Origin: Planctomycetales bacterium
Lineage (GTDB): Bacteria; 4484-113; JAFGCY01
NCBI GenBank assembly: GCA_022646745.1
Contig: CP060262.1
Coordinates: 1,890,001-1,922,000 of the forward strand
Direction: 5' to 3'
DNA length: 32,000 bases
Below are positions 1 through 31,503 of the stretch, piece by piece; within the stretch, counting starts at the first letter, position 1, and each line of letters opens with the position of its first letter. The notes beneath the pieces are model-generated. The model made no database searches. It had not been told where the DNA came from and saw nothing but the letters and a program-made list of their open reading frames with translations. A program made the translations under genes and the position numbers.

Positions 1-2737
1 CCGTCTCTGAGAATGAGATCGGCAAGCTCAGTGCTGAGCAGCAGGCACTGCTTTCAGACGCGGGCTGGAACCAGCCCTACATCGTCCCCAAGGCCGGCAC
101 CCCGATCCAGGGCCCGAGCCATGAGATGCTGATGGCACAGCTTCGTGAGATGGCTGAGCGCGGCGTCGAGATGCTGCCCCGCGGCGTCGAGGGAGAAGGC
201 ACGAAGGGAGCCAGCTGGCTGGACCAGCGCGGCTTCAACCCGGGCGTTGACAGTGGCCTTGTGAAGGGCCAGTACAAGCCCGCCGACACCGGCGCCAACG
301 GCGTGCCGGACTTCGGTTGCAACGCCTCCGGTGCGCTGATGGCTGACAACGGCCAGTCCGACATCGAGGACGTGATCTTCGCCTACGGCGGCAGCATGCC
401 GGCCCAGGCGATCAGCTGGGTGGCTGAGGGTCTGTCGACCATCAACCACTTCAACAGCGTCGGTGGTGGTGGTGACGATGCGTACACCGCCGTTTACCAG
501 CTGTTCGCTGACAGCGAGACCGCGAACCCGAGCAACCAGGGCAACAACGACATCGGTGAGATCGGCTACCGTGCCGACCTCGGCCCCTACGGCATCGGTT
601 ACGGCCAGGGCAGCGGCCCCAGCGGCACGCTGTGCGACGGAACCGCCTACGGTGTCCGCAATGCGTTCTGGATGACCTTCAACGAGAAGTTCTTCGCCCT
701 GCCGAGCGGCCAGGCGACTGCCCTGTACAACGTGCTGATCGCCCCCAGCGGTGATGAGGGTGCGGACCAGGTCAGCCCGATGGACACCTCCGCAAACTTC
801 CAGACCTTCTACTTTGGCAACGTGTCCTCCTGCTACGGGGATGCGATGATCGTCGGCATCAACGCAGCTGACAGCGGTTGCGACATGTTCGACGAGGCCT
901 CCAATGCGCCGTGGCAGGACCGTACGGCGGATGGCAACAGCTACCCGAACATCCTGCACAACCCGATCTTCGGCGTGATCCTGGCCCGCTGGGCCGGCGG
1001 CAACGCCAACTCGGACAGCCAGTTCTTCGGCGACGGCAGCTTCCCGAGTGCGGCGAGCATCGTCGGCTGGCCCGTGGCCCGTCCGTTCGCATACAACAAC
1101 GGCGCCGCGCTGCTCAATGCCAACGGTGCCTACTACGCCTTCGGCCAGTTCTTCGAGAAGGGTTTCATGTGGTGGATCGACTACGACCAGAACAGCAACC
1201 CGACCGCGAGCGACGAAGCGCAGATGTACGTCTACGATGGCAACAACACCTTCTGCGAGGGTGAGTACTCCAAGGTCGAGCCCGACGTGTTCTACGGCGG
1301 CGCTGGCGACCTCGGTGTCGGCGTGACCGTTGACGGCGTGCGCTACGGTGCCGGCGACTGGTCCGCCCCGCAGCTGTCCGACGACGGTACCTATTACCAG
1401 ATCGGCATGCTGCTGGACGAGAACACCGGCATCAGCAGCGTGACCATCGCTGCCAGCGCGCACGGCTTCGGCGGTGTGACGGCTGACGGTGCCGATGTGG
1501 GCCACCCCGAGTGGGGCGCCTGCCTGTACAAGCACAGCACATGGTCATGGCGTGACGGTACGGTCACGGCAGCCGGCACGGCCTTCGATCCGAGCCAGTT
1601 CGCCCGTACCCACACCTACAGCAGCAATGCGATCAAGACCAATGTCGAGGGTGTGTACACGATCCGTAACCAGGTCGTGGACGCCGATGACAACATCGCC
1701 TACGGTGACAGCCTTCCGATGCACCTCGGACACGGCGGCGCCGGTGGTGGCGGTGGCGACACCGAAGTCTGGGTCATCCGCAACGACGGCGGTGACTTCC
1801 AGCTCAACCTCGACGCCCTGACCGGCGACCTTGACGCCCTTGGCGTTGGCTACAGCGTGGTCGACTACAGCGCAACCGTCGCTGACGACTTCGCTGCCAA
1901 CCCGAACGCGAAGGTCGCGATCTGGTACCGTGGTGGACCGGGTGGCGCGGGTGAGTCCGCGACCTACACCACCGCCTGGACCAGCGGTGAGATGGACAAC
2001 TACATCCAGCTGATGAGCGACGGCTTCGGCGTGATGCTGATGAGCCAGAACCACGGCTACGATGGAGACCTGTTCTTCACCAACGGCTGGAGTGGCATCT
2101 ACGGTTATGCGACCCTGCCGGCCTCCGTCCCGGATGCCGACCGCCGCATGCCCTGGGCCTCCAGCCTGTGCACCGATGACGGTATCGGTTTCGGTGGAAC
2201 CCTTGGTTTCATCCCGACCGCCCCGAGCAACTTCATCGGTAACCCGAGCGGCGCGAACTTCGGTGCCGACGGTACCAACGCCGCGGAGCGCTACACCGGT
2301 AGTGGTTCCTCGGGTGAGCTGCCGATCAGCTTCGGCATGGCAACCGGCCGCCAGTACTGCGGTATCGGTTACTACAGCTCCTTCTTCGCGGGCTCCTGCG
2401 CAGGTCCGGCCTTCCGTGCCGGTATCGGCCACCAGCCCAACGCGCTTGGCTTCGACCTGGGCTTCCTGTCCTGGGGTAACAGCCAGGCCCCGGATGCCAA
2501 CATCGGCTTCTTCCCGAGCTACAGCCACAGCTTCGGCACCGGCAAGGTGTGGAACGTGGGCTACAGCTGGGCAGGCACCAGTGTGACGGCTTCCGCTTCC
2601 GGCACGATGGACCGCGCCGACCTGCTGAACAACATCCTCGGTTGGCTGGATGACAGCCTGACCTTCGGTGGTGGCGGCGGCGGTGGCGCCGGCTTCGAGG
2701 AGTACGATGGTCCTCCGGAGATCGTCTGCGTGACCCC
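1..2737 (+). repeat. Copy 1 of a >=2.7-kb near-identical intragenic repeat (5' part of the giant lipoprotein genes).
   Basis: The sense-frame protein and several off-frame ORF translations are letter-identical to those at +5356 (e.g. 54-1535 vs 5410-6891, 2062-2586 vs 7418-7942). The only A/B difference I found is T1895 vs C7251 (GCT/GCC, synonymous). The first divergent base is 2738 (g) vs 8094 (c). Confidence 0.9.
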
Positions 2738-4829
2738 GATCGCCTGGGACAAGGTGAACGGTGCTGTGACGCAGGGTACCGCCGGTGTGGGTGGCCAGAA
2801 CTACCCCGACCCGAACGGTTCCAACGTCTTCGGTCCGGATGTGACCCCCGGCTTTGACTACGCTGTTGAGTACGACACCGGCGTCCGCACCCCGGGCGAC
2901 GATGACGGCGGCCTGAATGGCAACGACATGGACTTCCAGTTCCCGTTCTACGGCTTCCTGCAGTGGGACGACACCCTCGGCGCCATCCCCGGCGACGTGG
3001 AGGCTGCTGAGATCATCGATGTCAACTACAGCGGTATCGCCCTGAGCGACATCTCCGCTGACTGGACCAAGTTCTCCGCCCCCTACGGTGGTGTGTTTGA
3101 TCCTTCCGCCCTCGGCCTCCGTCCGGCAGCCGCCTGGTTCCTGACCGAGACCGACAACTTCGGTAACATCAACACCGCCAGCTACGGCGATGCCTTTGGC
3201 CCGAACCTGACCTTCAGCAATGACGACGACCTGGTTGCCACCGAGGCGATCGCGCACTGGGCACAGGGCACGATGTACGGCGGTTCCCCGGCGTACCTCG
3301 CCTGGGCGATGTATCCCGGCCATAAGTCCGTCCAGTTCGACAACGCTGACATCGCCGTGGGTTACTACGGTGAGGGCGACGTGCTGTGGGAGGACTTCAT
3401 CGCCGACCACGACATCCAGGTCGGACGTGACCTGTGGGCCTACCTGCGCAGTGACTACTCCTTCACCACCCCCGGTGAGGGCCGCACGGTTGACTTCGAC
3501 TACAACACCGTATTCGGTTTCAACGGCGACCTGAACCGCAACGGCGTGGCCGGAGAGGCCGCTGACAAGTTCCCGGTGCGTGTCCGCTTCTTCACTGATG
3601 TGGATGCCTACGACGACTACTTCGATGACCTGAACGGTTACCCGAACTTCTGGCCTGATGGCGACTCCTTCATCGAGGGTGGTTGCTACATGGTGGACAA
3701 CGGACTGCCGAACTACCCGGTCAGCATCTTTGACGATTCCGACGAGGATGATCCGAAGGACACCGTCTCCGGCAGTGGCCCGGACTACAACGTCGCCCTG
3801 TACTTCGAGCTGGCCTTCGGCGTCGGCCCGTACGACGTGGAACTCGACTGGGATTACGACTTCATCGGCTGGGGCAACAGCGGTTACACCATGACCCTGC
3901 CCAACAGCCCGTTTGCCAACAATGGCAAGCTTTCCGATGTCGTGAACGTTGACCCGACCCCGGCTGGCGGCGACGGGGACTACTTCTTCGCCCTGCAGGT
4001 GACCGACAGTTCAGTTCCTGCTCGCACGGATGAGTTCTTCTGGCCCGATGCGGTGCCGCTGCAGCCCAGCCTGAGCTACCTTGTGGTGGATGACAGCACG
4101 CAGAGCGGTGACCTGAGCGCCAGCCAGTGCGCCACTGCCCTGACGACCATCTACGGCAGCCCCGTGTCCGTTGTCAACAGTGCCACGCTGAGCCCCGGTG
4201 ACCTGAATGGTTATTCAGTGGTCGTCTGGTGCACCAACCACCGCTTCAACAACTCCGGCGGTACGGGTCCGGGAATTGTCCAGTCTGACTATGACGTGAT
4301 CGCACCGTACATGGACCAGGGTGGTAACCTCGTGATGTTCTGGCCCTGCCAGGGACCATTCAGTGGTACGACGCAGATTTACTACAACCAGGGACAGATC
4401 GACCTGTGCAAGGACTACCTCGGTTACATCAACTCGACCTTCCGGATGTACTACCGCAACGGCACATCCTCAAGCTACGATCCGCACATCACGGATAGCG
4501 GACTGAGTATCGGCCCCGGCGCGAGCAACATGAACTACATTGATCGCAACGGTTCCAACCCCGGATACTACTGCGGATACTTCAATGATTCGGACCTGAC
4601 CGGTTCTGACGCGGCCTGGTCGTTCACGTCCTCCCGCCGGATCATCCAGCGTTACGACTCAAACGGAGCTTCGGAGGGCGGAGTGGCCCTGGTCAACCAG
4701 TTCTACTTCTGGAATTCCGAAGCGACCTCCTCACTGAGCGGTTCCCCGCTTGGTGGCAGTGTCGCAGCGTCCCAGGTGATCATGTTGAAGAACATGCTCA
4801 ACTACATGGACCCGCTGCTGCTGCCCTAG
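1..4829 (+). CDS. Giant secreted lipoprotein, paralog A. 5' end lies outside the window (reading frame 3). Unknown family, C-terminal cassette type 1.
   Basis: The ORF is open from the window edge; codons read from nt 3 (VSENEIGKLSAEQQ...). The ATG at 126 in the ORF track is internal. Nt 1-2737 match nt 5357-8093 of paralog B, which has a lipoprotein signal peptide upstream. Stop is TAG at 4827-4829, followed by a rho-independent terminator. Composition is rich in G/D/N/Y/F/W and poor in K/R, with three poly-Gly linkers. Confidence 0.85.
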   Translation, partial: VSENEIGKLSAEQQALLSDAGWNQPYIVPKAGTPIQGPSHEMLMAQLREMAERGVEMLPRGVEGEGTKGASWLDQRGFNPGVDSGLVKGQYKPADTGANGVPDFGCNASGALMADNGQSDIEDVIFAYGGSMPAQAISWVAEGLSTINHFNSVGGGGDDAYTAVYQLFADSETANPSNQGNNDIGEIGYRADLGPYGIGYGQGSGPSGTLCDGTAYGVRNAFWMTFNEKFFALPSGQATALYNVLIAPSGDEGADQVSPMDTSANFQTFYFGNVSSCYGDAMIVGINAADSGCDMFDEASNAPWQDRTADGNSYPNILHNPIFGVILARWAGGNANSDSQFFGDGSFPSAASIVGWPVARPFAYNNGAALLNANGAYYAFGQFFEKGFMWWIDYDQNSNPTASDEAQMYVYDGNNTFCEGEYSKVEPDVFYGGAGDLGVGVTVDGVRYGAGDWSAPQLSDDGTYYQIGMLLDENTGISSVTIAASAHGFGGVTADGADVGHPEWGACLYKHSTWSWRDGTVTAAGTAFDPSQFARTHTYSSNAIKTNVEGVYTIRNQVVDADDNIAYGDSLPMHLGHGGAGGGGGDTEVWVIRNDGGDFQLNLDALTGDLDALGVGYSVVDYSATVADDFAANPNAKVAIWYRGGPGGAGESATYTTAWTSGEMDNYIQLMSDGFGVMLMSQNHGYDGDLFFTNGWSGIYGYATLPASVPDADRRMPWASSLCTDDGIGFGGTLGFIPTAPSNFIGNPSGANFGADGTNAAERYTGSGSSGELPISFGMATGRQYCGIGYYSSFFAGSCAGPAFRAGIGHQPNALGFDLGFLSWGNSQAPDANIGFFPSYSHSFGTGKVWNVGYSWAGTSVTASASGTMDRADLLNNILGWLDDSLTFGGGGGGGAGFEEYDGPPEIVCVTPIAWDKVNGAVTQGTAGVGGQNYPDPNGSNVFGPDVTPGFDYAVEYDTGVRTPGDDDGGLNGNDMDFQFPFYGFLQWDDTLGAIPGDVEAAEIIDVNYSGIALSDISADWTKFSAPYGGVFDPSALGLRPAAAWFLTETDNFGNINTASYGDAFGPNLTFSNDDDLVATEAIAHWAQGTMYGGSPAYLAWAMYPGHKSVQFDNADIAVGYYGEGDVLWEDFIADHDIQVGRDLWAYLRSDYSFTTPGEGRTVDFDYNTVFGFNGDLNRNGVAGEAADKFPVRVRFFTDVDAYDDYFDDLNGYPNFWPDGDSFIEGGCYMVDNGLPNYPVSIFDDSDEDDPKDTVSGSGPDYNVALYFELAFGVGPYDVELDWDYDFIGWGNSGYTMTLPNSPFANNGKLSDVVNVDPTPAGGDGDYFFALQVTDSSVPARTDEFFWPDAVPLQPSLSYLVVDDSTQSGDLSASQCATALTTIYGSPVSVVNSATLSPGDLNGYSVVVWCTNHRFNNSGGTGPGIVQSDYDVIAPYMDQGGNLVMFWPCQGPFSGTTQIYYNQGQIDLCKDYLGYINSTFRMYYRNGTSSSYDPHITDSGLSIGPGASNMNYIDRNGSNPGYYCGYFNDSDLTGSDAAWSFTSSRRIIQRYDSNGASEGGVALVNQFYFWNSEATSSLSGSPLGGSVAASQVIMLKNMLNYMDPLLLP

Positions 4830-4870
4830 TGCAAGCTGCCTGAGCCTGGTCGGCTGAACTGACCAAACCG

Positions 4871-4900
4871 GCCCCGGAGTCACTGGCTCCGGGGCTTTTT
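4871..4900 (+). terminator. Rho-independent terminator of giant paralog A.
   Basis: Stem gccccggag (4871-4879), loop tcactgg, stem ctccggggc (4887-4895), then ttttt (4896-4900). Confidence 0.8.
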
Positions 4901-5016
4901 CATTTCCGGATGTTGCAGAGAGGAAATTCTCAGCAGATACATATAAGTAAAGTACGGTCAAGTGATCATCTGCTTAATCGGATCAATCGAACCCTTTACC
5001 TTTCCTTAACGATGGG

Positions 5017-5046
5017 GTTATAGTCTAGGTGCACAGCATATAGGTA
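5017..5046 (+). promoter_or_regulatory. Putative promoter and conserved transcript-start block for giant paralog B.
   Basis: GTTATAGT-N6-GCACAGCATATAGGTA sits in an AT-rich island. The same block with the same N6 spacing recurs upstream of paralog C at 15619-15648. TATAGT (5019-5024) is a 5/6 match to the -10 consensus TATAAT. A possible -35, TTTACC, lies at 4995-5000 (N18 spacing). The implied 5' UTR is about 140 nt. Confidence 0.35.
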
Positions 5047-5172: not shown

Positions 5173-8100
5173 ATGAAGACTCATGTGAACTGGTGTAAGC
5201 ACCTCGGGCTAACGCTTGTGGCGCTTACGGTAGTCTTCGTAGCAGCTTCCTGCGGTGGTAACGGCGGTGGTATCTCGGCGAATGTCGAGACCCAGACCGG
5301 TACCTCCAACACCGTGATCGACGGAGGTCGTAACGGTGTTGTATCAGCGGAGCTTACCGTCTCTGAGAATGAGATCGGCAAGCTCAGTGCTGAGCAGCAG
5401 GCACTGCTTTCAGACGCGGGCTGGAACCAGCCCTACATCGTCCCCAAGGCCGGCACCCCGATCCAGGGCCCGAGCCATGAGATGCTGATGGCACAGCTTC
5501 GTGAGATGGCTGAGCGCGGCGTCGAGATGCTGCCCCGCGGCGTCGAGGGAGAAGGCACGAAGGGAGCCAGCTGGCTGGACCAGCGCGGCTTCAACCCGGG
5601 CGTTGACAGTGGCCTTGTGAAGGGCCAGTACAAGCCCGCCGACACCGGCGCCAACGGCGTGCCGGACTTCGGTTGCAACGCCTCCGGTGCGCTGATGGCT
5701 GACAACGGCCAGTCCGACATCGAGGACGTGATCTTCGCCTACGGCGGCAGCATGCCGGCCCAGGCGATCAGCTGGGTGGCTGAGGGTCTGTCGACCATCA
5801 ACCACTTCAACAGCGTCGGTGGTGGTGGTGACGATGCGTACACCGCCGTTTACCAGCTGTTCGCTGACAGCGAGACCGCGAACCCGAGCAACCAGGGCAA
5901 CAACGACATCGGTGAGATCGGCTACCGTGCCGACCTCGGCCCCTACGGCATCGGTTACGGCCAGGGCAGCGGCCCCAGCGGCACGCTGTGCGACGGAACC
6001 GCCTACGGTGTCCGCAATGCGTTCTGGATGACCTTCAACGAGAAGTTCTTCGCCCTGCCGAGCGGCCAGGCGACTGCCCTGTACAACGTGCTGATCGCCC
6101 CCAGCGGTGATGAGGGTGCGGACCAGGTCAGCCCGATGGACACCTCCGCAAACTTCCAGACCTTCTACTTTGGCAACGTGTCCTCCTGCTACGGGGATGC
6201 GATGATCGTCGGCATCAACGCAGCTGACAGCGGTTGCGACATGTTCGACGAGGCCTCCAATGCGCCGTGGCAGGACCGTACGGCGGATGGCAACAGCTAC
6301 CCGAACATCCTGCACAACCCGATCTTCGGCGTGATCCTGGCCCGCTGGGCCGGCGGCAACGCCAACTCGGACAGCCAGTTCTTCGGCGACGGCAGCTTCC
6401 CGAGTGCGGCGAGCATCGTCGGCTGGCCCGTGGCCCGTCCGTTCGCATACAACAACGGCGCCGCGCTGCTCAATGCCAACGGTGCCTACTACGCCTTCGG
6501 CCAGTTCTTCGAGAAGGGTTTCATGTGGTGGATCGACTACGACCAGAACAGCAACCCGACCGCGAGCGACGAAGCGCAGATGTACGTCTACGATGGCAAC
6601 AACACCTTCTGCGAGGGTGAGTACTCCAAGGTCGAGCCCGACGTGTTCTACGGCGGCGCTGGCGACCTCGGTGTCGGCGTGACCGTTGACGGCGTGCGCT
6701 ACGGTGCCGGCGACTGGTCCGCCCCGCAGCTGTCCGACGACGGTACCTATTACCAGATCGGCATGCTGCTGGACGAGAACACCGGCATCAGCAGCGTGAC
6801 CATCGCTGCCAGCGCGCACGGCTTCGGCGGTGTGACGGCTGACGGTGCCGATGTGGGCCACCCCGAGTGGGGCGCCTGCCTGTACAAGCACAGCACATGG
6901 TCATGGCGTGACGGTACGGTCACGGCAGCCGGCACGGCCTTCGATCCGAGCCAGTTCGCCCGTACCCACACCTACAGCAGCAATGCGATCAAGACCAATG
7001 TCGAGGGTGTGTACACGATCCGTAACCAGGTCGTGGACGCCGATGACAACATCGCCTACGGTGACAGCCTTCCGATGCACCTCGGACACGGCGGCGCCGG
7101 TGGTGGCGGTGGCGACACCGAAGTCTGGGTCATCCGCAACGACGGCGGTGACTTCCAGCTCAACCTCGACGCCCTGACCGGCGACCTTGACGCCCTTGGC
7201 GTTGGCTACAGCGTGGTCGACTACAGCGCAACCGTCGCTGACGACTTCGCCGCCAACCCGAACGCGAAGGTCGCGATCTGGTACCGTGGTGGACCGGGTG
7301 GCGCGGGTGAGTCCGCGACCTACACCACCGCCTGGACCAGCGGTGAGATGGACAACTACATCCAGCTGATGAGCGACGGCTTCGGCGTGATGCTGATGAG
7401 CCAGAACCACGGCTACGATGGAGACCTGTTCTTCACCAACGGCTGGAGTGGCATCTACGGTTATGCGACCCTGCCGGCCTCCGTCCCGGATGCCGACCGC
7501 CGCATGCCCTGGGCCTCCAGCCTGTGCACCGATGACGGTATCGGTTTCGGTGGAACCCTTGGTTTCATCCCGACCGCCCCGAGCAACTTCATCGGTAACC
7601 CGAGCGGCGCGAACTTCGGTGCCGACGGTACCAACGCCGCGGAGCGCTACACCGGTAGTGGTTCCTCGGGTGAGCTGCCGATCAGCTTCGGCATGGCAAC
7701 CGGCCGCCAGTACTGCGGTATCGGTTACTACAGCTCCTTCTTCGCGGGCTCCTGCGCAGGTCCGGCCTTCCGTGCCGGTATCGGCCACCAGCCCAACGCG
7801 CTTGGCTTCGACCTGGGCTTCCTGTCCTGGGGTAACAGCCAGGCCCCGGATGCCAACATCGGCTTCTTCCCGAGCTACAGCCACAGCTTCGGCACCGGCA
7901 AGGTGTGGAACGTGGGCTACAGCTGGGCAGGCACCAGTGTGACGGCTTCCGCTTCCGGCACGATGGACCGCGCCGACCTGCTGAACAACATCCTCGGTTG
8001 GCTGGATGACAGCCTGACCTTCGGTGGTGGCGGCGGCGGTGGCGCCGGCTTCGAGGAGTACGATGGTCCTCCGGAGATCGTCTGCGTGACCCCCATCTCC

Positions 8101-10014
8101 TGGAACAAGGTTGATGGTTCCGTGACGCAGGGTACCGCCGGTGTGGGTGGCCAGAACTACCCCGACCCGAACGGTTCCAACGTCTTCGGTCCGGATGTGA
8201 CCCCCGGCTTTGACTACGCTGTCGAGTACGACACCGGCGTCCGTACCCCGGGCGACGATGACGGCGGCCTTAATGCCAACGACATCGACTTCCAGTTCCC
8301 GTTCTACGGCTTCCTTGAGTGGGACGACACCCTCGGCGCCATCCCCGGCGACGTGGAGGCTGCTGAGATCATCGATGTCAACTACAGCGGTATCCCGCTG
8401 AGCGACATCTCCGCTGACTGGACCAAGTTCAACGCTCCCTACGGTGGTGTGTTTGATCCTTCCGCCCTTGGCCTGAACCCGGCTGCCGCCTGGTTCCTGA
8501 CCGAGACCGACACCTTCGGCAGCATCAACACCGCCGGCTACGGCGATGCCTTCGGTCCGAACCTGGTGTTCGACAGCGATAGTGAGTTCGTTGCCACCGA
8601 GGCGATCGCGCACTGGGCACAGGGCACGATGTACGGCGGCTCCCCGGCGTACCTCGCCTGGGCGATGTTCCCCGGCCACAAGAGCGTGAAGTACAACGCC
8701 GGCGGTACCGCCGTCGGTTACTACAGCGAGGGTGGCATCCTCTGGGAGGACTTCATCCGCGACCACGACATCCAGGTCGGACGTGACCTGTATGCCTACC
8801 TGCGCAGCGACTACTCCTTCACCACCCCCGGTGAGGGCCGTACCGTTGACTTTGACTACGACACCCTCGTCGGCTGGAACGGCGACATGAACCGCAACGG
8901 AACCACCGGCGAAGCCGGCGACAAGTTCCCGGTGCGTGTCCGCTTCTTCACCGATGTGGACGTCTACGACGATTACTTCGATGACCTGAACGGTTACCCG
9001 AACTTCTGGCCTGATGGCGACTCCTTCATCGAGGGTGGTTGCTACATGGTGGACATCGGTGACCCGAACTACCCGGTGCTGATCTTCGACGACGCCGATG
9101 AGGACGACCCGAAGGACACCGTCTCCGGTACCGGCCCGTCCTATGACGTGGACCTGTACTTCGAGCTGGCCTTCGGCGCCGGCCCGTACGACGTGGAGCT
9201 TGACTGGAACTATGACTTCATCGGTCATGGCAACAGTGGCTTCACCCAGGCCGTCGGCACCTTCGCCGCCAACGGCAAGAACAACGACAGCGTGAACGTC
9301 GACCCGACCCCGGCTGGTGGAGATGGCAACTACTTCTTCAGCCTCGAAGTGACCGACAGCACGCTGCCGACCCCGACCACCGACAGCTTCTTCTGGCCCG
9401 ATGCGGTGCCGCTGATGCCCGGTGCGCTGTTCTATGACGATATGTCCGCGTACAACACGTACAACGATGCCAACGCCGCCGGCTGGCTGCGTGGTACCGG
9501 CCCGGGCCATAGTGGCGCGGTGAACTGGCATATCGGCCCGCAGTGGGAGACGGCGTTCAACCTGTACAACGGCCAGGCCTGGCACTGCAACGACGGCGCT
9601 GACGGCACCAACGGCGGTACCTACAACGGCGTTCCGAAGTCCACCCTGCGTTCTCCGGCGGTCAACGCTCCTCCGGGATCCGACCCCTGGCTGCACTTCC
9701 GCGCCAACCTGGGCTTCCAGGAGAGCACCACATTCGACCAGTTCTGGCTCGGATGGGACAGCTCCGCAGCTGCCAACAACGAGGCTTCCGCCACATGGAC
9801 CCAGCGTTTCGGTCCGTTCGGCAACTTCGACGCGGCATGGGGCAACAGTGCCCAGACGCAGCTTCGTACCTACAACATCTCCGCCCCGGGCGGTTCCACC
9901 TTCTACCTGATGTTCTCGCTGGAGTCGCTTGACTCGATCGGCAACGCAGCGGATGGTGTGCACCTTGACCCGGTGACCTGCACGGACGGCAACTTCCCCG
10001 ATCCGACCTGGTAA
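5173..10014 (+). CDS. Giant secreted lipoprotein, paralog B (1613 aa). Unknown family, C-terminal cassette type 2 (jelly-roll/MAM-like pattern).
   Basis: ATG at 5173 is preceded by AGGAG (5164-5168). N-terminus MKTHVNWCKHLGLTLVALTVVFVAASCGGNGGG is a signal peptide plus lipobox Cys. The ORF-track start at 5077 adds a non-signal-like extension. Stop is TAA at 10012-10014, followed by a terminator. Confidence 0.85.
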   Translation: MKTHVNWCKHLGLTLVALTVVFVAASCGGNGGGISANVETQTGTSNTVIDGGRNGVVSAELTVSENEIGKLSAEQQALLSDAGWNQPYIVPKAGTPIQGPSHEMLMAQLREMAERGVEMLPRGVEGEGTKGASWLDQRGFNPGVDSGLVKGQYKPADTGANGVPDFGCNASGALMADNGQSDIEDVIFAYGGSMPAQAISWVAEGLSTINHFNSVGGGGDDAYTAVYQLFADSETANPSNQGNNDIGEIGYRADLGPYGIGYGQGSGPSGTLCDGTAYGVRNAFWMTFNEKFFALPSGQATALYNVLIAPSGDEGADQVSPMDTSANFQTFYFGNVSSCYGDAMIVGINAADSGCDMFDEASNAPWQDRTADGNSYPNILHNPIFGVILARWAGGNANSDSQFFGDGSFPSAASIVGWPVARPFAYNNGAALLNANGAYYAFGQFFEKGFMWWIDYDQNSNPTASDEAQMYVYDGNNTFCEGEYSKVEPDVFYGGAGDLGVGVTVDGVRYGAGDWSAPQLSDDGTYYQIGMLLDENTGISSVTIAASAHGFGGVTADGADVGHPEWGACLYKHSTWSWRDGTVTAAGTAFDPSQFARTHTYSSNAIKTNVEGVYTIRNQVVDADDNIAYGDSLPMHLGHGGAGGGGGDTEVWVIRNDGGDFQLNLDALTGDLDALGVGYSVVDYSATVADDFAANPNAKVAIWYRGGPGGAGESATYTTAWTSGEMDNYIQLMSDGFGVMLMSQNHGYDGDLFFTNGWSGIYGYATLPASVPDADRRMPWASSLCTDDGIGFGGTLGFIPTAPSNFIGNPSGANFGADGTNAAERYTGSGSSGELPISFGMATGRQYCGIGYYSSFFAGSCAGPAFRAGIGHQPNALGFDLGFLSWGNSQAPDANIGFFPSYSHSFGTGKVWNVGYSWAGTSVTASASGTMDRADLLNNILGWLDDSLTFGGGGGGGAGFEEYDGPPEIVCVTPISWNKVDGSVTQGTAGVGGQNYPDPNGSNVFGPDVTPGFDYAVEYDTGVRTPGDDDGGLNANDIDFQFPFYGFLEWDDTLGAIPGDVEAAEIIDVNYSGIPLSDISADWTKFNAPYGGVFDPSALGLNPAAAWFLTETDTFGSINTAGYGDAFGPNLVFDSDSEFVATEAIAHWAQGTMYGGSPAYLAWAMFPGHKSVKYNAGGTAVGYYSEGGILWEDFIRDHDIQVGRDLYAYLRSDYSFTTPGEGRTVDFDYDTLVGWNGDMNRNGTTGEAGDKFPVRVRFFTDVDVYDDYFDDLNGYPNFWPDGDSFIEGGCYMVDIGDPNYPVLIFDDADEDDPKDTVSGTGPSYDVDLYFELAFGAGPYDVELDWNYDFIGHGNSGFTQAVGTFAANGKNNDSVNVDPTPAGGDGNYFFSLEVTDSTLPTPTTDSFFWPDAVPLMPGALFYDDMSAYNTYNDANAAGWLRGTGPGHSGAVNWHIGPQWETAFNLYNGQAWHCNDGADGTNGGTYNGVPKSTLRSPAVNAPPGSDPWLHFRANLGFQESTTFDQFWLGWDSSAAANNEASATWTQRFGPFGNFDAAWGNSAQTQLRTYNISAPGGSTFYLMFSLESLDSIGNAADGVHLDPVTCTDGNFPDPTW
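5357..8093 (+). repeat. Copy 2 of the near-identical 2.7-kb intragenic repeat.
   Basis: Same as 1-2737 at offset +5356. See the evidence for that feature. Confidence 0.9.
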
Positions 10015-10043
10015 GGAACTGAGCCTGATCGACTGAATCGATT

Positions 10044-10073
10044 GCCCCCGGGGCATGTCCCCGGGGGCTTTTT
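10044..10073 (+). terminator. Rho-independent terminator of giant paralog B.
   Basis: Stem gcccccgggg (10044-10053), loop catgt, stem ccccgggggc (10059-10068), then ttttt (10069-10073). A second 8-bp hairpin follows at 10079-10100 (cagttgcc-ttttct-ggcaactg). Confidence 0.85.
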
Positions 10074-10110
10074 CATTCCAGTTGCCTTTTCTGGCAACTG
10101 CGACGCCGGA

Positions 10111-10121
10111 TGTGCTATGTT
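10111..10121 (+). promoter_or_regulatory. Possible extended -10 promoter element for the ankyrin gene.
   Basis: tgTGcTATGTT resembles the TGTGYTAGAAT motif upstream of FG-GAP genes 1 and 2. It lies between the upstream terminator and the RBS GGGAGA (10129-10134). No clear -35. Confidence 0.25.
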
Positions 10122-10140
10122 AGCCCCGAGGGAGAAAGCC

Positions 10141-11409
10141 ATGCCGCGATTCCAGCTGATCATCGCCCTGCTCGCAGCCCTGTGCTGCCTCTATGCATCC
10201 TGTGATAAACCTGCCCCGGGTCAGTCCGCAGACGGCCAGGCTACCGCAAAGGATGGGAATGATTCGCCAACCCCTGCCGCTGAAGCCGGGCCGGCGCCAC
10301 AGACGATCAACCCCTCTGAATTGCCGGACCCGGACCACAAGCCACCAAGGCAGTACAATGAGGAGGAACTCGCACGCTTCGAGGAAATGCTTGCGGTTGA
10401 CAGTGCGGAAACCCGCAACAAGCTGGTTGACGACGGGGCAATGCTGGATGCTGACCACCTGATTGACTACATCAGCATGGGCCGGATGAACATCGTGGTG
10501 CGCATGATCGCCTCCGGCATGGACCTGAACCGGCCGGCTGCGAACGGCAAGCTGCCACTGGCTGAAGCGATCCTGCAGAATGACCCGTGGCTGATCGAGC
10601 AGATGATCAAGCACGGCGCGGATCCGACGCTGACTGACGACCCGACTCAAGGCGTCGGTCGCAGCATGCTCCACTATGCCACGAAGATGAATGATGCCGG
10701 CCTGGTGGAGCGGCTGCTTGAGCTCGGTGTGCCGGTTGACATCAGGGACGTCAATGACCAGACACCGCTGGACGTGGCGGCGACCTATGGCGAGACTGAG
10801 GCGATGGCTGTGCTGCTTGACAACGGTGCGGATCCGGTGCGCATGGACAAGGGCGGGAGCATCCCGGTGCTGCTGGCCGCCGGCTATGGACACACGGACG
10901 CGGTGCGCCTGCTGCTGCAGCATGGGGCCGACATCAACTTCCAGCATGAACGGGGTTGGACACCGCTGCTGCTGTCGATCTACTACGATCAACTTGACAC
11001 GGCACAGTACGTACTTGACAACGGTGGCGACATCAAGGCGCAGCTGGAGACGGGCTACGGGGCTGCCGGGATCGCCGCCACACTTGGCGACCCGGAGATG
11101 CTGCGCCTCGTGATCGATGCCGGGGCACCGCTGGATGACATCACCGCCCAGGACGGCCGAAACCTGGTCCATATCTGTGCGATCAACAACCTCGGCAGTT
11201 TCATCCGTGAACTGGCGGAGGCCGGCGTGGACCCTGCAGCAGAGGACAGTGAAGGCCGTACTGCGCTGGAGCTGGCACGCGAAGCGAACGACACGGAGGC
11301 GGAGCAGGTGCTGATGGAACTGACAGGGGCACCTCCGGCACCGCCGGAAACGGACGACCCGGCTGCCGAGTCAGCGGATTCGGAACCACCAGCCGGCAGC
11401 GCAAGTTGA
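10141..11409 (+). CDS. Ankyrin-repeat lipoprotein (422 aa).
   Basis: ATG at 10141 follows a GGGAGA RBS. N-terminus MPRFQLIIALLAALCCLYASCDKP has a lipobox with Asp at +2. A P/A/E-rich linker is followed by about 8-9 ankyrin-like repeats (e.g. GRSMLHYATKMNDAGLVERLLELGVPVDIRD, QTPLDVAATYGETEAMAVLLDNGADP, GWTPLLLSIYYDQLDTAQYVLDNGGDI, GRTALELAREANDTEAEQVL), then an acidic P-rich tail. The ORF-track start at 10042 overlaps the upstream terminator and is rejected. Confidence 0.85.
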   Translation: MPRFQLIIALLAALCCLYASCDKPAPGQSADGQATAKDGNDSPTPAAEAGPAPQTINPSELPDPDHKPPRQYNEEELARFEEMLAVDSAETRNKLVDDGAMLDADHLIDYISMGRMNIVVRMIASGMDLNRPAANGKLPLAEAILQNDPWLIEQMIKHGADPTLTDDPTQGVGRSMLHYATKMNDAGLVERLLELGVPVDIRDVNDQTPLDVAATYGETEAMAVLLDNGADPVRMDKGGSIPVLLAAGYGHTDAVRLLLQHGADINFQHERGWTPLLLSIYYDQLDTAQYVLDNGGDIKAQLETGYGAAGIAATLGDPEMLRLVIDAGAPLDDITAQDGRNLVHICAINNLGSFIRELAEAGVDPAAEDSEGRTALELAREANDTEAEQVLMELTGAPPAPPETDDPAAESADSEPPAGSAS

Positions 11410-11550: not shown

Positions 11551-11573
11551 CAGGCTCCCTGCTGTGTTAGAAT
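11551..11573 (+). promoter_or_regulatory. Putative extended -10 promoter for FG-GAP/ASPIC gene 1.
   Basis: caggctccctgcTGtgtTAGAAT. A nearly identical 21-23 nt block, caggctctgcTGtgcTAGAAT, occurs at 21903-21923 upstream of FG-GAP gene 2. TAGAAT (11568-11573) is a 5/6 match to the -10 consensus. Confidence 0.4.
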
Positions 11574-11707
11574 CAGACTGGTTGAAATTGAGGAGATCCG
11601 CTCCGTCATCGAGTCTCTCTCAGAGACCGGGCCGCTATTGTTGGAAACGTCCTGCCGGCACCCCCACTGGATGTTCTGCGATGGACCGGATCAAGGCGGG
11701 TAATCAT

Positions 11708-14700
11708 ATGCACAGATACATCTTCGTCGCAGTCCTCGGGCTGCTGCTCTACTCCTGCGCTGACAACAAGGGCCAGCCTCCCGTGAGCGGTGGCATGACT
11801 GCCGGCGGCGGGCAGCAGGCGGGATCAGGCGGCGGGCTGTTCGCCGACATGCCTGAGTCCGATGCCCAGGTCAGCTCCGTCGAGTTCCAGGCGGGCAGCT
11901 CCGGTGGCGCCTTCGTGAAGCTTGAGCCGTCCGAGACCGGGATGGACTTCACCTCCGAGGTGCTGAGCAAGGAACTCAAGCTGGATGCCATTGCTGTGCA
12001 GGCCGGAATGGCAACGGGTGACTACGATGGCGATGGCGACATCGACATCTACCTGTGCGGCATCGAGAATGACAACGCCTTGTACCGCAACGAGGGTGGC
12101 TGGCAGTTCACGGACGTAACCGATGAGGCCGCCAGCGGCCTGCGCATGACCGGCGACATGGCCGAGACCGCGGTGATGGCCGACCTCAACGGCGACAATG
12201 TTCTGGACATCTACGTCGGGGTGCGCGGCGGCGTCAACCGCTACTTCGCCGGCAACGGCGACGGCACCTTCAGCGACCGCAGCGAGGAGTCCGGGCTGGA
12301 CAGCGCACGGTCCACCGTCGTCAGCGCGGTGTTCGACGTTGACAACGACGGCGACCTCGATGTCTACAACGCCAACAACCGCAAGGGCCGAAACGACGAC
12401 CGCAAGATCGAGGACATGCGCAGTGACGGACGCTACTTCAACATGATGAAGAACATGGAGACCGGGGAGGTCAAGCTCGACGAGACCATGCACCCCGAGC
12501 ATTACATGGACAAGGCCGGTAAGATCCGCCTGCGCCCTGACAATGACGACCTGCTGATCAACGATGGCAACGGGCACTTCACCAACGAGGCCCTGGAGCG
12601 CGGCATCCAGCCCGCCGGCTGGGCGCTGAACGCGCTGGCCTGCGACTTCAACAACGACGGCTGGACGGACCTGCAGGTCTCGGGCGACTTCGACACCCCA
12701 GACTGGTACTACATCAATGACGGCAAGGGCAACTTCACCGAGCGCGGTGAGGACATGCTGCGCGTCACCAGTTACTTCGGGATGGGCAGCGACGCCGGTG
12801 ACCTGAACCATGACGGCTGGATGGACTATATGGTGGGTGACATGTCGCCGACCGGCTACAAGGACGGCAAGAAGCAGAGTGGCGACATGAACCTCTCGCG
12901 CTACGAGCTGGTGCACTACGAGCCGCACCAGAACATGCGCAACACCGTGCTGCTGAACCGTGGCGACGGCTGGATGAGTGAGGCGGCCGCACTGCTCAAC
13001 GTGAAGAGCACCGACTGGACCTGGAGCATCCGGCTGGCTGACCTGAACAGCGACGGCATCCTCGAAATCCTGGCAACCAACGGCTACATCAGCACCTCCG
13101 TCGAGTACGACGTGCAGCGCAGGATCAAGGACATGTACGAGGCCGGCGCCAGCATCGAGGAGATCGATGCCTATGAGCTGTCGCTGCCCGCGCTGGAAAC
13201 CGACGACATCATCTTCACGGCCAGCGAGCCGCTGAACTACAAGAAGGCCCCGGACAACTGGGGGATCCACGATCAGGCGGTGTCCTGCGGATGCGTGCTG
13301 CAGGACATGGACGGAGACGGTGACCTCGACTTCGTCGTCAACAACACCGCCGCACAGGTCGGCGTGTACCGCAATGACCTTGACAATGGCAACATGGTGC
13401 TGCTGGACCTGCGCCAGGAGGGCCCAAACCGCGAGGCCGTCGGCGCGCGCGTGAAGGCCTACTGCGGTGACGACATGTTCATGCAGGACGTGATCCTCGC
13501 CCGCGGCTACGCCAGCGGTGAGAGCAGCCGGATCCACCTCGGGCTCGGTGAGCACCAGAAGATCGACGCACTGTGGATCCGCTGGCCTGACAACAAGGTC
13601 GAGGTGCTGCGAGACCTAGATGCCAACATGCTGTACAGCATCAGCCGCGGAAGCAAGCTCGTGGATTATGCAAAGGACCAGCACCAGCCCATGTTCAGCC
13701 AGCAGGCGCTGAACTGGCAGCAGCAGGAACTGGACACACTGGATGCCGAATTCGCGAAGGAGCCGCTGTTGCCGGTGCGCCGCAGCACGCTCGGCACCGG
13801 CCTCGGCGTGGCGGACATGAATGCCGATGGCAACCTGGACATCTACTTCGCCGGCCCGCAGGACCAGCAGGGCAAGCTGTTCACCGGCCGCGCAGACGGT
13901 GGCTTCGCCGGTTCGCCGATGCTGGACGACACGGTGGATGCCCGCCCGGAGAGCATGGGCGTGCTGCTATTCGAGGCCAATGGTGACGGCAGGCCCGACA
14001 TGCTGCTGACCAGCGGCAGCAACGAAAGCGAGGACCAGCCGCAGCGCTACCTGGACCGCATCTACCTCAGTGAGGGCGACGGCTGGAAGGCCGGTGCCCT
14101 GCCGGTTGAGCAGGTGCCCTCCGGCAGCGCCGCCGCCAGCGACATTGACAACGACGGCGACCTCGACCTGGTGATCGCCGGCCGGCTCAAGCCCTATACC
14201 TATGGCCAGGGTGTGCACAGCCACGTGCTGGAGAACGACGGCCAGGGCGGCTTCACGCTGGCAACCGGGCGCATCGCCCCCGGGCTGGCGGACAGCGGCC
14301 CGGTATCGGACATCTGCTTCGCCGACATCAACGGTGACGGCCGCGATGACCTGCTCGTCGCGCAGGAGTTCGGCAGCGTCGAATGGTGGGCCAACAATGA
14401 TGGCAACCTGCTGCGCCAGGGGCCGGTCGGCCCGACCGGGATGTGGCAGTCGGTGGTTGCGGCTGACTTTGACAACGATGGTGACAATGACCTGATCTGT
14501 GGCAACTGGGGCTTGAACACCAAGTACCACCCTTCCGCGGAGAAGCCCTATATGGTGATCGCGGATGACTTCGATGGCAACGGTACCCGTGACGTGGTCG
14601 AGGTCAAGTTCGGCAGCGACGGCACGCTGCTGCCGGGCCGCGGGCGTTCCTGCAGCGGCTATGCGATCTCCACCGTGCCGCAGAAATTCCCGACCTGGGA

Positions 14701-15430
14701 GATGTTCGCCAACGCTACACTGGAGGAGATCTACGGCCCGGTGGACGCGGTATCCGAGAAACTGACTGCCGACCACGTGGCCAGCGCATATTTCGAGAAT
14801 GACGGCAGCGGTAACTTCAGCATGACTGACCTGCCGACGATGGCCCAGGTCAGCTGTGTAATGGGTGTTGCCGTGGGCGATTTCAACAATGACGGCAAGC
14901 TCGATGCCTGGTTGAACAACAACTTCCGCAACACCCAACCCGAGGAAACCCGCTGGGTCTGTGGTTACGGCACGCTGATGCTGGGCAACGGTGACGGCAG
15001 CTTCAACTGCCTGGAGCCGCTGGATTCAGGGATCCGCGTCATTGCTGAAGGGCGCGGGGCCGTGGCTGCCGACTTCAATGGTGATGCCTGCCTGGATATC
15101 GTGATGAGCGTAAGCAATTCCAGCCCGCAGGTGGCCCTGATGGATCCCGCCCGTGCACAGGGCAAGGGCCTGCTGGTCACGCTGACCGGTCCGGCCGGCA
15201 ACCCGGCAGCTGTCGGGGCCAGGCTTGCACTGGAACTGTCCGATGGCCAGGTGCTGCATCGCGAGGTGCAGGCCGGCAGCGGATACCTTTCCAGCTACGT
15301 GGGTCCCGTGCACTTCGGAATTCCCACCGGCAGCACTGCCAGCAAGCTGACTGTCAGCTGGCCGGATGGCAGCACTAGTGAGGAAACGAGCTTCAGCGGA
15401 AACTCTGTAAGCCTCAGCCACGGAAGCTGA
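11708..15430 (+). CDS. FG-GAP/VCBS repeat + ASPIC/UnbV domain lipoprotein, CRTAC1-like (1240 aa), paralog 1.
   Basis: ATG at 11708 gives MHRYIFVAVLGLLLYSCADNKG, a signal peptide with lipobox. Many calcium-binding FG-GAP/VCBS motifs are present (GDYDGDGDIDIY, DVDNDGDLDVY, DFNNDGWTDL, DMDGDGDLDFVV, DIDNDGDLDLVI, DFDNDGDNDLI, DFNNDGKLDAW). Two ASPIC/UnbV-like modules are present (AVGARVKAYCGDDMFMQDVILARGYASGESSRIHLGLG...LWIRWPDN and AVGARLALELSDGQVLHREVQAGSGYLSSYVGPVHFGIP...LTVSWPDGS). Confidence 0.9.
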   Translation: MHRYIFVAVLGLLLYSCADNKGQPPVSGGMTAGGGQQAGSGGGLFADMPESDAQVSSVEFQAGSSGGAFVKLEPSETGMDFTSEVLSKELKLDAIAVQAGMATGDYDGDGDIDIYLCGIENDNALYRNEGGWQFTDVTDEAASGLRMTGDMAETAVMADLNGDNVLDIYVGVRGGVNRYFAGNGDGTFSDRSEESGLDSARSTVVSAVFDVDNDGDLDVYNANNRKGRNDDRKIEDMRSDGRYFNMMKNMETGEVKLDETMHPEHYMDKAGKIRLRPDNDDLLINDGNGHFTNEALERGIQPAGWALNALACDFNNDGWTDLQVSGDFDTPDWYYINDGKGNFTERGEDMLRVTSYFGMGSDAGDLNHDGWMDYMVGDMSPTGYKDGKKQSGDMNLSRYELVHYEPHQNMRNTVLLNRGDGWMSEAAALLNVKSTDWTWSIRLADLNSDGILEILATNGYISTSVEYDVQRRIKDMYEAGASIEEIDAYELSLPALETDDIIFTASEPLNYKKAPDNWGIHDQAVSCGCVLQDMDGDGDLDFVVNNTAAQVGVYRNDLDNGNMVLLDLRQEGPNREAVGARVKAYCGDDMFMQDVILARGYASGESSRIHLGLGEHQKIDALWIRWPDNKVEVLRDLDANMLYSISRGSKLVDYAKDQHQPMFSQQALNWQQQELDTLDAEFAKEPLLPVRRSTLGTGLGVADMNADGNLDIYFAGPQDQQGKLFTGRADGGFAGSPMLDDTVDARPESMGVLLFEANGDGRPDMLLTSGSNESEDQPQRYLDRIYLSEGDGWKAGALPVEQVPSGSAAASDIDNDGDLDLVIAGRLKPYTYGQGVHSHVLENDGQGGFTLATGRIAPGLADSGPVSDICFADINGDGRDDLLVAQEFGSVEWWANNDGNLLRQGPVGPTGMWQSVVAADFDNDGDNDLICGNWGLNTKYHPSAEKPYMVIADDFDGNGTRDVVEVKFGSDGTLLPGRGRSCSGYAISTVPQKFPTWEMFANATLEEIYGPVDAVSEKLTADHVASAYFENDGSGNFSMTDLPTMAQVSCVMGVAVGDFNNDGKLDAWLNNNFRNTQPEETRWVCGYGTLMLGNGDGSFNCLEPLDSGIRVIAEGRGAVAADFNGDACLDIVMSVSNSSPQVALMDPARAQGKGLLVTLTGPAGNPAAVGARLALELSDGQVLHREVQAGSGYLSSYVGPVHFGIPTGSTASKLTVSWPDGSTSEETSFSGNSVSLSHGS

Positions 15431-15458
15431 GGCGACCAATTTTGACCTATATAAGAAA

Positions 15459-20684: not shown

Positions 20685-21899
20685 ATGCCCCCGATCCATC
20701 CCGCGATCCGTAACATATCCGTAGCCATCCTGCTGGGCCTGCTGGCTGGCTGTCCCGCCGGGCAAACCGGTGAAAGCGGTTCCACCAATGTGGATGCCGC
20801 CACTGCAGATGCAAACCCCGCAGCCGATGCTGAGAAGCAGGCTGATGCGGGAACAGATGCACAGGCTGCCCCAGCCGGGCAGGAAAACATGACCTGGCGC
20901 GCCTACATCGATCCGAAGATGTCGATGGAGGAGATCGAGGCGCTCAGTGAGGAGGATGCCCGCGCCAAGCTGGAAGAGCTGGGTGTGCCATTCGAGGCCT
21001 TCAACTTCCACGAGGCGATTGAAATGGACCCGCTCGAGCTGTGCGCGCTGTTCCTGCAGGCCGGCATGCCGGTGGACAGCCCCAACATGGCAGGCGTATC
21101 CCCGCTGCAGGCAGCCTCATACCAGCAGAAGATAGAGCATATGAAGTTGTTCATTGAGCATGGCGCGGACATCAACTACGAGGACCCGCGCTTCCGGGCC
21201 ACCCCGGTGGACTTCGCCGTTGGCAGTGGCAACATGGAGGTGCTGCAGATCCTGCTGGACCAGGGGGCCGACCCCGCCGGCGGAAGCCAGTCGCGCCCGA
21301 TCCTGATTGACGCGATCGAGTCCGGCAGCCTGGAGATGTTCAACTTCATCTATGGGAAGTTCCCGGATGTGACAGTGACCGACCGCACCGGCCAGGGTAC
21401 GCTGATGAACGCCTGCCTGACGGGCCACCTGGATATCGCGCAGCGACTGGTGGAGCTCGGGGCGGAGATCAACCAGATTGAGCCGCAGGGAGGCACTCCG
21501 CTGGCGGCGGCGGCCTACCGCGGCAACTGGGACGTGTTCGACTTCCTGCTGCAGCATGGTGCGGACCCGATGCAGAGCTACCGCGGCAACCGCAACCTGC
21601 TGTTCGAGTTCGGCTACCACCAGGACTATCCGCATGAGCTGGCCGAACAGCTGATCGAACAGGGCATGGACATCAACCAGCAGGATGAACGCAGTGGAGT
21701 AACGCCACTGATCAATGCGGCAAACAATGCGAACATGGACCTCGTGAAGCTGTTGCTGGACCATGATGCGGACCCTGACAAGCGCGATGTGAATGGCATG
21801 AGTGCCTGTGACTTCGCGAAGTTCACGGAGAACGGCGACATGGTGCTGCTGTTCAGCAAGTACGGCATCACCAGTGAGCGGGAGTTCCCCCAGCAGTAG
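20685..21899 (+). CDS. Ankyrin-repeat lipoprotein (404 aa), paralog 2.
   Basis: N-terminus MPPIHPAIRNISVAILLGLLAGCPAGQ has a canonical LAGC lipobox. An acidic A/D-rich linker is followed by ankyrin-like repeats (GVSPLQAASYQQKIEHMKLFIEHGADINYED, ATPVDFAVGSGNMEVLQILLDQGADP, GTLMNACLTGHLDIAQRLVELGAEIN, GTPLAAAAYRGNWDVFDFLLQHGADP, VTPLINAANNANMDLVKLLLDHDADPDKRD). Only distantly similar to the 10141-11409 product. Confidence 0.85.
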   Translation: MPPIHPAIRNISVAILLGLLAGCPAGQTGESGSTNVDAATADANPAADAEKQADAGTDAQAAPAGQENMTWRAYIDPKMSMEEIEALSEEDARAKLEELGVPFEAFNFHEAIEMDPLELCALFLQAGMPVDSPNMAGVSPLQAASYQQKIEHMKLFIEHGADINYEDPRFRATPVDFAVGSGNMEVLQILLDQGADPAGGSQSRPILIDAIESGSLEMFNFIYGKFPDVTVTDRTGQGTLMNACLTGHLDIAQRLVELGAEINQIEPQGGTPLAAAAYRGNWDVFDFLLQHGADPMQSYRGNRNLLFEFGYHQDYPHELAEQLIEQGMDINQQDERSGVTPLINAANNANMDLVKLLLDHDADPDKRDVNGMSACDFAKFTENGDMVLLFSKYGITSEREFPQQ

Positions 21900-31482: not shown

Positions 31483-31503
31483 AGCTGCCACTAACACCTT
31501 ATT

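Follow-up and report, generated by a model that had tools for sequence, protein, structure and literature searches.

How can tandem copies of a very large gene stay almost identical over their first 2.7 kb when their 3′ ends, and the genes duplicated together with them, have drifted far apart? The question is raised by a stretch of 32,000 nucleotides (nt), hereafter the window, which spans positions 1,890,001 to 1,922,000 of contig CP060262.1 (assembly GCA_022646745.1) from a Planctomycetales bacterium. It contains three genes for giant predicted lipoproteins, designated A, B and C; A is followed directly by B, while B and C are each followed by a gene for a predicted ankyrin-repeat lipoprotein (ank1 and ank2, respectively) and by genes for predicted FG-GAP/ASPIC lipoproteins (FG1 after ank1, and FG2 and FG3 after ank2). 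We consider it likely that intragenomic recombination homogenizes the 5′ two-thirds of the giant genes, their core, while the 3′ ends and the ankyrin and FG-GAP partners diverge, and that the latest gene to have arisen in this way is A.

The three giant genes were compared in an ungapped register, in which a position in A corresponds to that position plus 5356 in B and plus 15941 in C. From the window edge to position 2737, A and B differ at one site, 1895 T in A and 7251 C in B, which is synonymous (GCT/GCC, Ala); an earlier interpretation of this DNA, made from its letters only (hereafter the sequence-only reading), is thereby borne out to the base. It had also described C as close to both, and over the same 2737 nt C has 25 differences from A and 26 from B. 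The next 1123 nt contain 130 differences between A and B, versus one in the preceding 2737 nt (binomial log10 P = −67.7). In a sliding comparison, identity stays near 100% through the first 2.7 kb, varies in a mosaic fashion between 76 and 98% as far as nt ~4060, and then falls to about 30%, at which the sequences are unalignable; the C-terminal domain of A cannot be aligned with those of B or C.

The sequence-only reading had A/B identity stopping abruptly at 2738, at a domain boundary shortly after a (GGY)7 tract that is indeed found there (Table 1), and contrasted the peptides AWDKVNGAV and SWNKVDGSV beyond this point, both of which are present. The first difference after 2737 is literally at 2738 (G in A, C at 8094 in B), but it opens a patch of 28 nt (2738-2765 in A coordinates) in which B alone is altered, and past the patch A and B are again identical for 101 nt (2766-2866), so that the stop is abrupt only in the literal sense. 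Beyond 2866 the identity declines stepwise, with successive 100-nt intervals at 98, 95, 95, 88, 85 and 76%. The patch in B carries four amino acid changes, converting AWDKVNGAV into SWNKVDGSV. The former version is carried by Z, A, C, E, F (Z, E and F being further paralogs from the same genome) and other close relatives retrieved, and no donor for the version in B was found on either strand of the window or among 147 family proteins. C, too, has short private clusters of this kind, such as the one at 16954-17005, with 8 differences within 52 nt.

Synonymous divergence (dS, calculated by the NG86 method, with the core taken as nt 3-2735) separates the two parts of the locus sharply. In the core, dS is 0.0016 for A/B, 0.030 for A/C and 0.032 for B/C; it rises to 0.28-0.36 among the giants in the middle region, and to 0.94 between the C-terminal domains of B and C. 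The partner genes, rather than being equally low, are far higher than the giant 5′ parts: 0.85 for FG1/FG2, 0.73 for FG1/FG3, 0.59 for FG2/FG3, and at least 1.3 for ank1/ank2. Their products are also as diverged as had been claimed, with 27% amino acid identity between ank1 and ank2 and 64-71% among the FG-GAP paralogs. Since the GC content of third codon positions (GC3) is alike in giant cores and FG-GAP genes (0.84-0.87), codon bias does not explain the identity at silent sites.

An external control is available in the metagenome-assembled genome (MAG) AC1.30, in which positions 1-20004 of locus L003 (from the 1.88-Mb contig JAWLAZ010000001.1) hold the same two modules, arranged as they are in the window: giantU-ank_a-FG_a-giantD-ank_b-FG_b. 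At the amino acid level, the FG-GAP proteins pair as orthologs (FG1 with FG_a at 80% and FG2 with FG_b at 77%, versus 64-66% between paralogs), and so do the ankyrin proteins (ank1 with ank_a at 57% and ank2 with ank_b at 49%, versus 24-25%) and the C-termini of the giants (B with U at 83% and C with D at 51%, versus 35%), indicating that the module duplication predates the split between the two lineages. In the cores, nucleotide identity is 98-100% between B and C and 96-100% between U and D, that is, within each genome, in contrast to 80-90% for all cross-genome pairs, and the signal turns from grouping by genome to orthology at about B 9140-9340. As dS between orthologs of the source genome and AC1.30 is about 0.7-0.8, compared with 0.03 for the B/C core, the latter must be far younger than the species split. 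Paralogs that are closer to each other within a genome than to their orthologs constitute the operational definition of concerted evolution (PMC6053082), and this is what the giant cores display. An old module duplication with homogenized 5′ two-thirds, as proposed in the sequence-only reading, is thus upheld by the dS contrast and by the topology switch.

AC1.30 also carries a dispersed giant copy (locus L001, 9899-15018, from JAWLAZ010000005.1), which is 86% identical to B and lies near a phosphonate-binding protein gene and a DUF58/VWA gene. It has neither ankyrin nor FG-GAP partners, which are therefore not obligatory for every copy.

The source genome (a 4.11-Mb contig with locus tags H7A35_; proteins UNM09906-UNM09911 for H7A35_07550-07575) encodes at least six giant paralogs, namely A, B, C, Z, E and F. 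They are about 100% identical at the amino acid level over alignment columns ~550-1000 and 92-100% identical over columns ~100-550, the exception being one 50-column window in which pairs with Z fall to 80%, and they lose similarity after column ~1350, where three tail types can be distinguished (Z/A/E, B/C and F). A six-way table of variable sites reveals haplotype blocks that unite Z and E against A, B, C and F at residues 70-315 and set Z apart at residues 396-416, while ISA at residues 1009-1011 is common to Z and E. After nt 2737, the three-way site partitions of A, B and C form 136 runs versus 181 ± 6.7 expected (P < 1e-4), a clustering somewhat inflated by neighbouring sites within one codon. 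Shared variants thus form a mosaic of the kind that conversion tracts would leave.

Gene A has a history of its own. It is not part of a duplicated ankyrin/FG-GAP unit, and occupies the middle of a tandem array with the order Z-A-B. In the numbering of full-length A, it is identical to B over residues 1-975, signal peptide included (0 amino acid differences), and identical to Z over residues 1012-1670, the whole variable tail included (0 differences over 659 residues); the 36 residues that distinguish A from Z all lie before 1012, and A is B-like to about residue 1011 and Z-like from 1012 on. The last B-like marker is VTP at codons 1009-1011 (nt 2841-2849) and the first Z-like one is G1035 (at about nt 2919), while silent sites private to A at 2867 and 2888 suggest that the junction precedes 2867. 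Position 2738 is not the recombination junction, and the real switch in A would be located near 2850-2919. A is probably a B5′::Z3′ hybrid of very recent origin, made by unequal crossover or by hybrid duplication, and not an old paralog homogenized with B; the sequence-only reading, which took A and B for old copies, would thus be right about homogenization of the core and mistaken about the age of A. A single unequal crossover in which the core of Z recombined with that of B would give the order Z-A-B, with A as such a hybrid. In recombination of the Lepore type, misaligned pairing of two tandem paralogs yields a hybrid gene, and Z-[B5′::Z3′]-B, with Z known from its protein, would be the exact product expected, except that a small extra patch near the junction in A needs a second event.

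The giant family is rare, with 109 representatives at E ≤ 1e-3 among 1.84 billion proteins, and the same profile recurs in its distant members. Co-resident paralog pairs from four further genomes share 85-100% amino acid identity in the N-terminal part and 15-60% at the C-terminus. At locus L013 (10001-25718, from a 2.38-Mb ENA contig), three tandem copies of 1905 amino acids, g1 to g3, show a single nucleotide difference in 2930 between g2 and g3 and 10 differing sites in the first 2770 nt between g1 and g2, with differences becoming dense from about nt 3170, approximately 130 codons past a poly-Gly linker at residue 924. Their upstream spacers are merely 46-68% alike, indicating that the identical block is internal to the gene and did not result from fresh duplication of the whole unit. 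Three tandem copies at another locus (L014, 10001-26501) yield the same profile in a weaker form. The members at these two loci are 37-40% identical to B at the amino acid level. Each array has at least three full-length copies, separated by about 500-770 nt, and the flanking DNA shown contains neither ankyrin nor FG-GAP genes. The drop in identity repeatedly falls 50-130 codons 3′ of the second poly-Gly linker, which lends partial support to the domain boundary of the sequence-only reading: it holds as a region, recurring in a distant genome, and not as a base.

These patterns are probably produced by homologous recombination between copies, which would repeatedly overwrite the core through gene conversion, whether the copies are tandem or dispersed, and through unequal crossovers inside the tandem array. 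Such overwriting would hold copies of the same genome at 99-100% core identity, leaving the 3′ ends and the neighbouring ankyrin and FG-GAP/ASPIC lipoprotein genes to diverge like ordinary old duplicates. A crossover between the core of B and that of the upstream Z would convert the array into Z-[B 5′::Z 3′]-B, creating A, and the 3′ limit of conversion may be set by sequence divergence, possibly also by selection on head-specific functions. GC content is 64.8% in the core (1-2849), 62% in the mosaic middle and 58.6% in the tail of A; the higher value in the core would fit GC-biased conversion, but the tails of B and C, at 64%, weaken this argument, which is far from conclusive.

Several points weigh against this scheme. 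Recombination is deduced from patterns and was not observed, and both the comparison of A with Z and the crossover interval are based on protein sequences only. Residues 976-983 of A do not match B, residues 1009-1011 do not match Z, and the resulting order of markers (Z-like, B-like, then Z-like) implies at least one extra small event beyond a single crossover. The AC1.30 assembly is error-prone, which blurs its within-genome identity values, and the U and D giants are frameshifted, probably by long-read errors. Finally, A and its one-nucleotide difference from B could in principle be the product of a spurious repeat loop or of over-polishing.

An artefact of this kind, whether a false B5′::Z3′ copy generated by an extra pass through a repeat loop or short-read polishing that homogenized multi-mapped repeats, appears unlikely to us, even though a hybrid precisely like A would result from a false loop through the shared core and the source is a single 4.1-Mb MAG contig, presumably built from long reads with polishing. 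B and C keep their 26 differences and Z keeps 36 amino acid differences from A, hence polishing did not homogenize the copies in general, nor could it erase the divergence of about 15-35% expected of old paralogs. A is not a clean two-parent join, and the A-type combination is also encoded on an independent ENA contig (protein P0036) with slightly different switch points, although a short-read chimera is possible there. Three further independent assemblies (L003, L013 and L014) show this 5′/3′ profile, and the grouping of cores by genome is present in four assemblies. Short-read MAGs KDL29, KDL30 and KDL44, from the same or close populations, break inside the giant genes: the unique N- and C-terminal ends of these genes are found on different contigs, and the core is collapsed into contigs of 1.0 and 1.5 kb, as expected for true multi-copy cores; some of their pieces are 100% identical to Z or F. 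These MAGs appear to be the UBP7 MAGs described from saline activated sludge (PMC8495973). The balance favours real giant copies, the existence of A and its exact identity with B being most exposed to assembly artefact.

Two biological alternatives have to be weighed against homogenization by recombination. The giants could have been duplicated recently and then had their 3′ ends replaced, with tails and partners grafted on from outside and no ongoing conversion. This resembles the C-terminal displacement model for Rhs genes, in which core and tip are likewise decoupled (PMC2935791); A is itself a recent duplicate, and the C-terminal types are discrete (Z/A/E, B/C and F). Yet the B/C-type tails, the ankyrin genes and the FG-GAP genes all have positional orthologs in the same order in AC1.30, so that both modules, tails included, predate the species split and it is the cores that are younger. 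Identity fades through a mosaic middle without a sharp graft junction, the GC3 of the tails is native-like, and the window contains neither orphan tips nor mobile-element genes; we regard this history as improbable. The remaining proposal, extreme purifying selection on the core that extends to synonymous sites, for instance through an overlapping gene or RNA structure, and operates without recombination, might draw on the long antisense open reading frames (ORFs) that cover the cores (54..1535 and 1545..3410 on the minus strand, plus copies) and on conservation of the core across the giant family. Such ORFs are expected by chance at 65% GC, however, and comparable ones overlap the diverged FG-GAP genes. 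The same core is only 80-90% identical between genomes at the nucleotide level, and 37-56% identical at the amino acid level in more distant relatives, and is therefore free to change; moreover, selection is unable to group paralogs by genome. We give this proposal hardly any credence.

The giant proteins are about 1600-1670 residues long and are divided into three zones: a constant core (residues ~62-1010) spanning two poly-Gly linkers, a mosaic middle (~1010-1400), and an exchangeable C-terminal domain of about 200-260 residues. A hydrophobic stretch and a lipobox-like Cys, recognized by pattern only, are found at the start of all seven complete proteins, with the motif VAASC in the giants, LYASC in ank1, LLAGC in ank2, LLYSC in FG1, LAASC in FG2 and LCCSC in FG3. 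Pfam, NCBIfam and PDB-sequence searches with the giants and with their C-terminal and inter-linker domains gave no significant match; the C-terminal domains have no Pfam match at E ≤ 10, and that of B has one chance-level PDB match (E = 0.5). The segment between the linkers (residues ~648-946 of B, window positions 7111-8010), which has equivalents in A and C, acts like an autonomous domain, since it is also found C-terminally, after PKD domains, in about 30 other proteins; no Pfam model covers it. In a BLASTP comparison, the C-terminal domain of A has only a weak collinear match to this inter-linker domain (E = 0.26), with start, middle and end motifs in the same order, and may be a remote internal duplication of it. 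A clan-CD (caspase-like) peptidase between the linkers, to which the strings SQNHG and AGSCAG had drawn attention, was rejected because an alignment of the family shows no conservation of the His and Cys; the clostripain (Peptidase_C11) domain of a relative, P0025, lends no support to a peptidase, as it sits elsewhere in that protein.

An AlphaFold model of B residues 60-1000 has a predicted local distance difference test (pLDDT) score of 71, and a Foldseek search with it gave no match at E ≤ 1e-3, only generic Ig/FN3/PKD matches and partial matches to a GH42 domain. For B residues 960-1613, modelled with a pLDDT of 69 and with the last 200 residues poorly predicted, Foldseek returned partial matches to MAM and Eph ligand-binding jelly rolls with a probability of 1.0; the matching segment was not placed within the model. 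Taken with the lipoprotein-like N-termini and the conservation of the ankyrin and FG-GAP/ASPIC partners, the jelly-roll matches suggest that the giants may be a cell-envelope binding or adhesion module with exchangeable heads. One could go further and regard the core as a constant scaffold, and recombination across it as a selected means of re-assorting predicted ligand-binding heads. The head would be a MAM/Eph-like jelly roll in B and C and of the alpha/beta type in Z, A and E, and certain kinds of head would come with matching ankyrin and FG-GAP/ASPIC partners. We put this forward tentatively, and think it rather doubtful.

Among known systems, the Rhs/YD-repeat toxins appear to be the closest analogue in evolutionary logic, core and tip being decoupled in both. 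Rhs genes, in which homologous recombination from core to core drives new core/tip combinations and rearrangements (PMC2935791), resemble the giants in that they are large, are present in several copies and join a long conserved core to one of a set of discrete C-terminal domains that can be exchanged; a small gene comes directly after B and C. The defining features of Rhs are nevertheless missing, and we reject identity with them: A, B and C have no RHS/YD repeats, no YD-like motif and no Pfam match, and the giants lack the core/tip motif PxxxxDPxGL and any recognizable C-terminal toxin domain. They differ from Rhs proteins also in having lipoprotein signal peptides (by pattern) and no orphan tips. 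In Rhs systems a small cognate immunity gene directly follows each toxin tip; B and C are followed by ankyrin lipoprotein genes that co-diverge with the tails, and A is followed directly by B. Tails and ankyrin genes are vertically conserved (83% and 57% amino acid identity, respectively) and not hypervariable; A and Z have no downstream ankyrin gene at all.

CdiA toxins were also rejected, with no VENN motif, no haemagglutinin or two-partner secretion domains and no CdiB-like gene in the window. The same applies to targets of diversity-generating retroelements: the tails differ wholesale, the changes that make up the B patch affect all of G, A, C and T and not adenine specifically, and the window has no second copy of the patch. 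No reverse transcriptase was found among the long ORFs scanned with Pfam, which comprised the eight giant, ankyrin and FG-GAP genes, the sigma factor gene and its adjoining ORF.

In Helicobacter pylori, the surface-protein paralogs babA, babB and babC are kept near-identical in part by intragenomic gene conversion and are divergent in another part, with chimeras. Reviews reportedly deal with recombination among these paralogs. In the bab genes the 5′ and 3′ ends are conserved and the middle varies, while the giants are constant in the 5′ two-thirds and variable at the 3′ end; the giants also belong to an unrelated family, are far larger, lie in tandem arrays with partner genes, and have no known context of host adaptation. 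Long-lasting concerted evolution of prokaryotic paralogs, such as tuf and amoCAB, was surveyed by Wang and Chen (2018), who reported 26 genes and described most of them as central to important pathways. The giants, by comparison, form an uncharacterized rare family, and conversion in them would be confined to a gene part beside a variable domain.

The process itself is thus well known, while the giant family and its three-gene module are uncharacterized, and the locus offers an unusually clean, though not unprecedented, case of bacterial concerted evolution limited to part of a gene. Its value lies in the internal clock, since the duplication can be dated from the ankyrin and FG-GAP genes that were copied with the giant gene and from the tail of the latter, and in the external control provided by orthologous modules in a second genome. 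The comparison also defines the architecture of the family (constant core, two poly-Gly linkers, mosaic middle, exchangeable head) and points to a conserved putative surface module of giant, ankyrin and FG-GAP/ASPIC lipoproteins in UBP7/Planctomycetes-like bacteria of activated sludge. It explains why short-read MAGs break at the giant genes, and copy number and chimeras in such arrays need long-read validation. If the swappable heads proved true, they would represent recombinational head-shuffling in an uncultured phylum, on a core matching no known family or fold.

The genes of interest in the window all lie on the plus strand, with the ECF sigma factor gene and its adjoining ORF on the minus strand (Table 1).

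Table 1. Giant genes, their partners and neighbouring features, in window coordinates, with paralogs outside the window at the end (all lipoproteins are predicted)
Feature	Position	Strand	Basis or remark
Giant lipoprotein gene A (H7A35_07555, 1670 aa)	1..4829	+	first 62 codons lie beyond the window edge; window translation corresponds to residues 63-1670 of P0040
Tract of A near-identical to B and C, part of homogenized core	1..2737	+	ungapped comparison
(GGY)7 tract, second poly-Gly linker of A	2667..2687	+	sequence; equivalents at ~8023-8043 (B) and 18608-18628 (C)
Putative crossover interval in A	2850..2919	+	six-way variable-site table, protein level for Z
Variable C-terminal domain of A	4059..4826	+	type common to Z (100% aa) and E (46-88%)
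Terminator-like hairpin followed by T-run, 3′ of A	4870..4896	+	sequence
Giant lipoprotein gene B (H7A35_07560, 1613 aa from annotated start)	5173..10014	+	ORF open from 5077
B-private patch (SWNKVDGSV)	8094..8121	+	9 substitutions in 28 nt; family comparison
Variable C-terminal domain of B	9415..10011	+	83% aa to AC1.30 ortholog; 35-39% to C-terminus of C
ank1, ankyrin-repeat lipoprotein, partner of B	10042..11409	+	likely start is ATG at ~10117-10141
FG1, FG-GAP/UnbV_ASPIC lipoprotein, partner of B	11564..15430	+	Pfam
Giant lipoprotein gene C (H7A35_07575, 1609 aa)	15758..20587	+	ORF open from 15650
ank2, ankyrin-repeat lipoprotein, partner of C	20685..21899	+	Pfam
FG2, FG-GAP/UnbV_ASPIC lipoprotein	22020..25754	+	Pfam
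FG3, FG-GAP/UnbV_ASPIC lipoprotein, tandem paralog of FG2	26095..29823	+	Pfam
253-aa ORF	30122..30883	-	no Pfam match; 4-nt overlap with ECF sigma factor gene
ECF-type sigma factor gene (Sigma70_r2/r4/ECF)	30880..31497	-	Pfam
Giant paralog Z (H7A35_07550)	immediately upstream of window
Giant paralog E (H7A35_15075)	elsewhere in source genome
Giant paralog F (H7A35_15895)	elsewhere in source genome

The label Planctomycetales bacterium is that of NCBI; the closest relatives in a GTDB-based collection are designated candidate phylum UBP7 (HKST-UBA01) or simply "bacterium", and the placement of the source genome is uncertain. The spacers upstream of B (4830-5172) and C (15431-15757) are AT-rich (51% and 44% GC, respectively), and resemble each other only close to the start codon (around it or from some 50 nt before it). 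Each spacer is preceded by a terminator-like hairpin, the one listed for A in the case of B and another at 15454-15483 in the case of C, indicating that each giant gene probably has its own promoter. The 253-aa ORF adjoining the ECF sigma factor gene is placed as an anti-sigma factor gene would be, and lies immediately downstream of the FG-GAP array.

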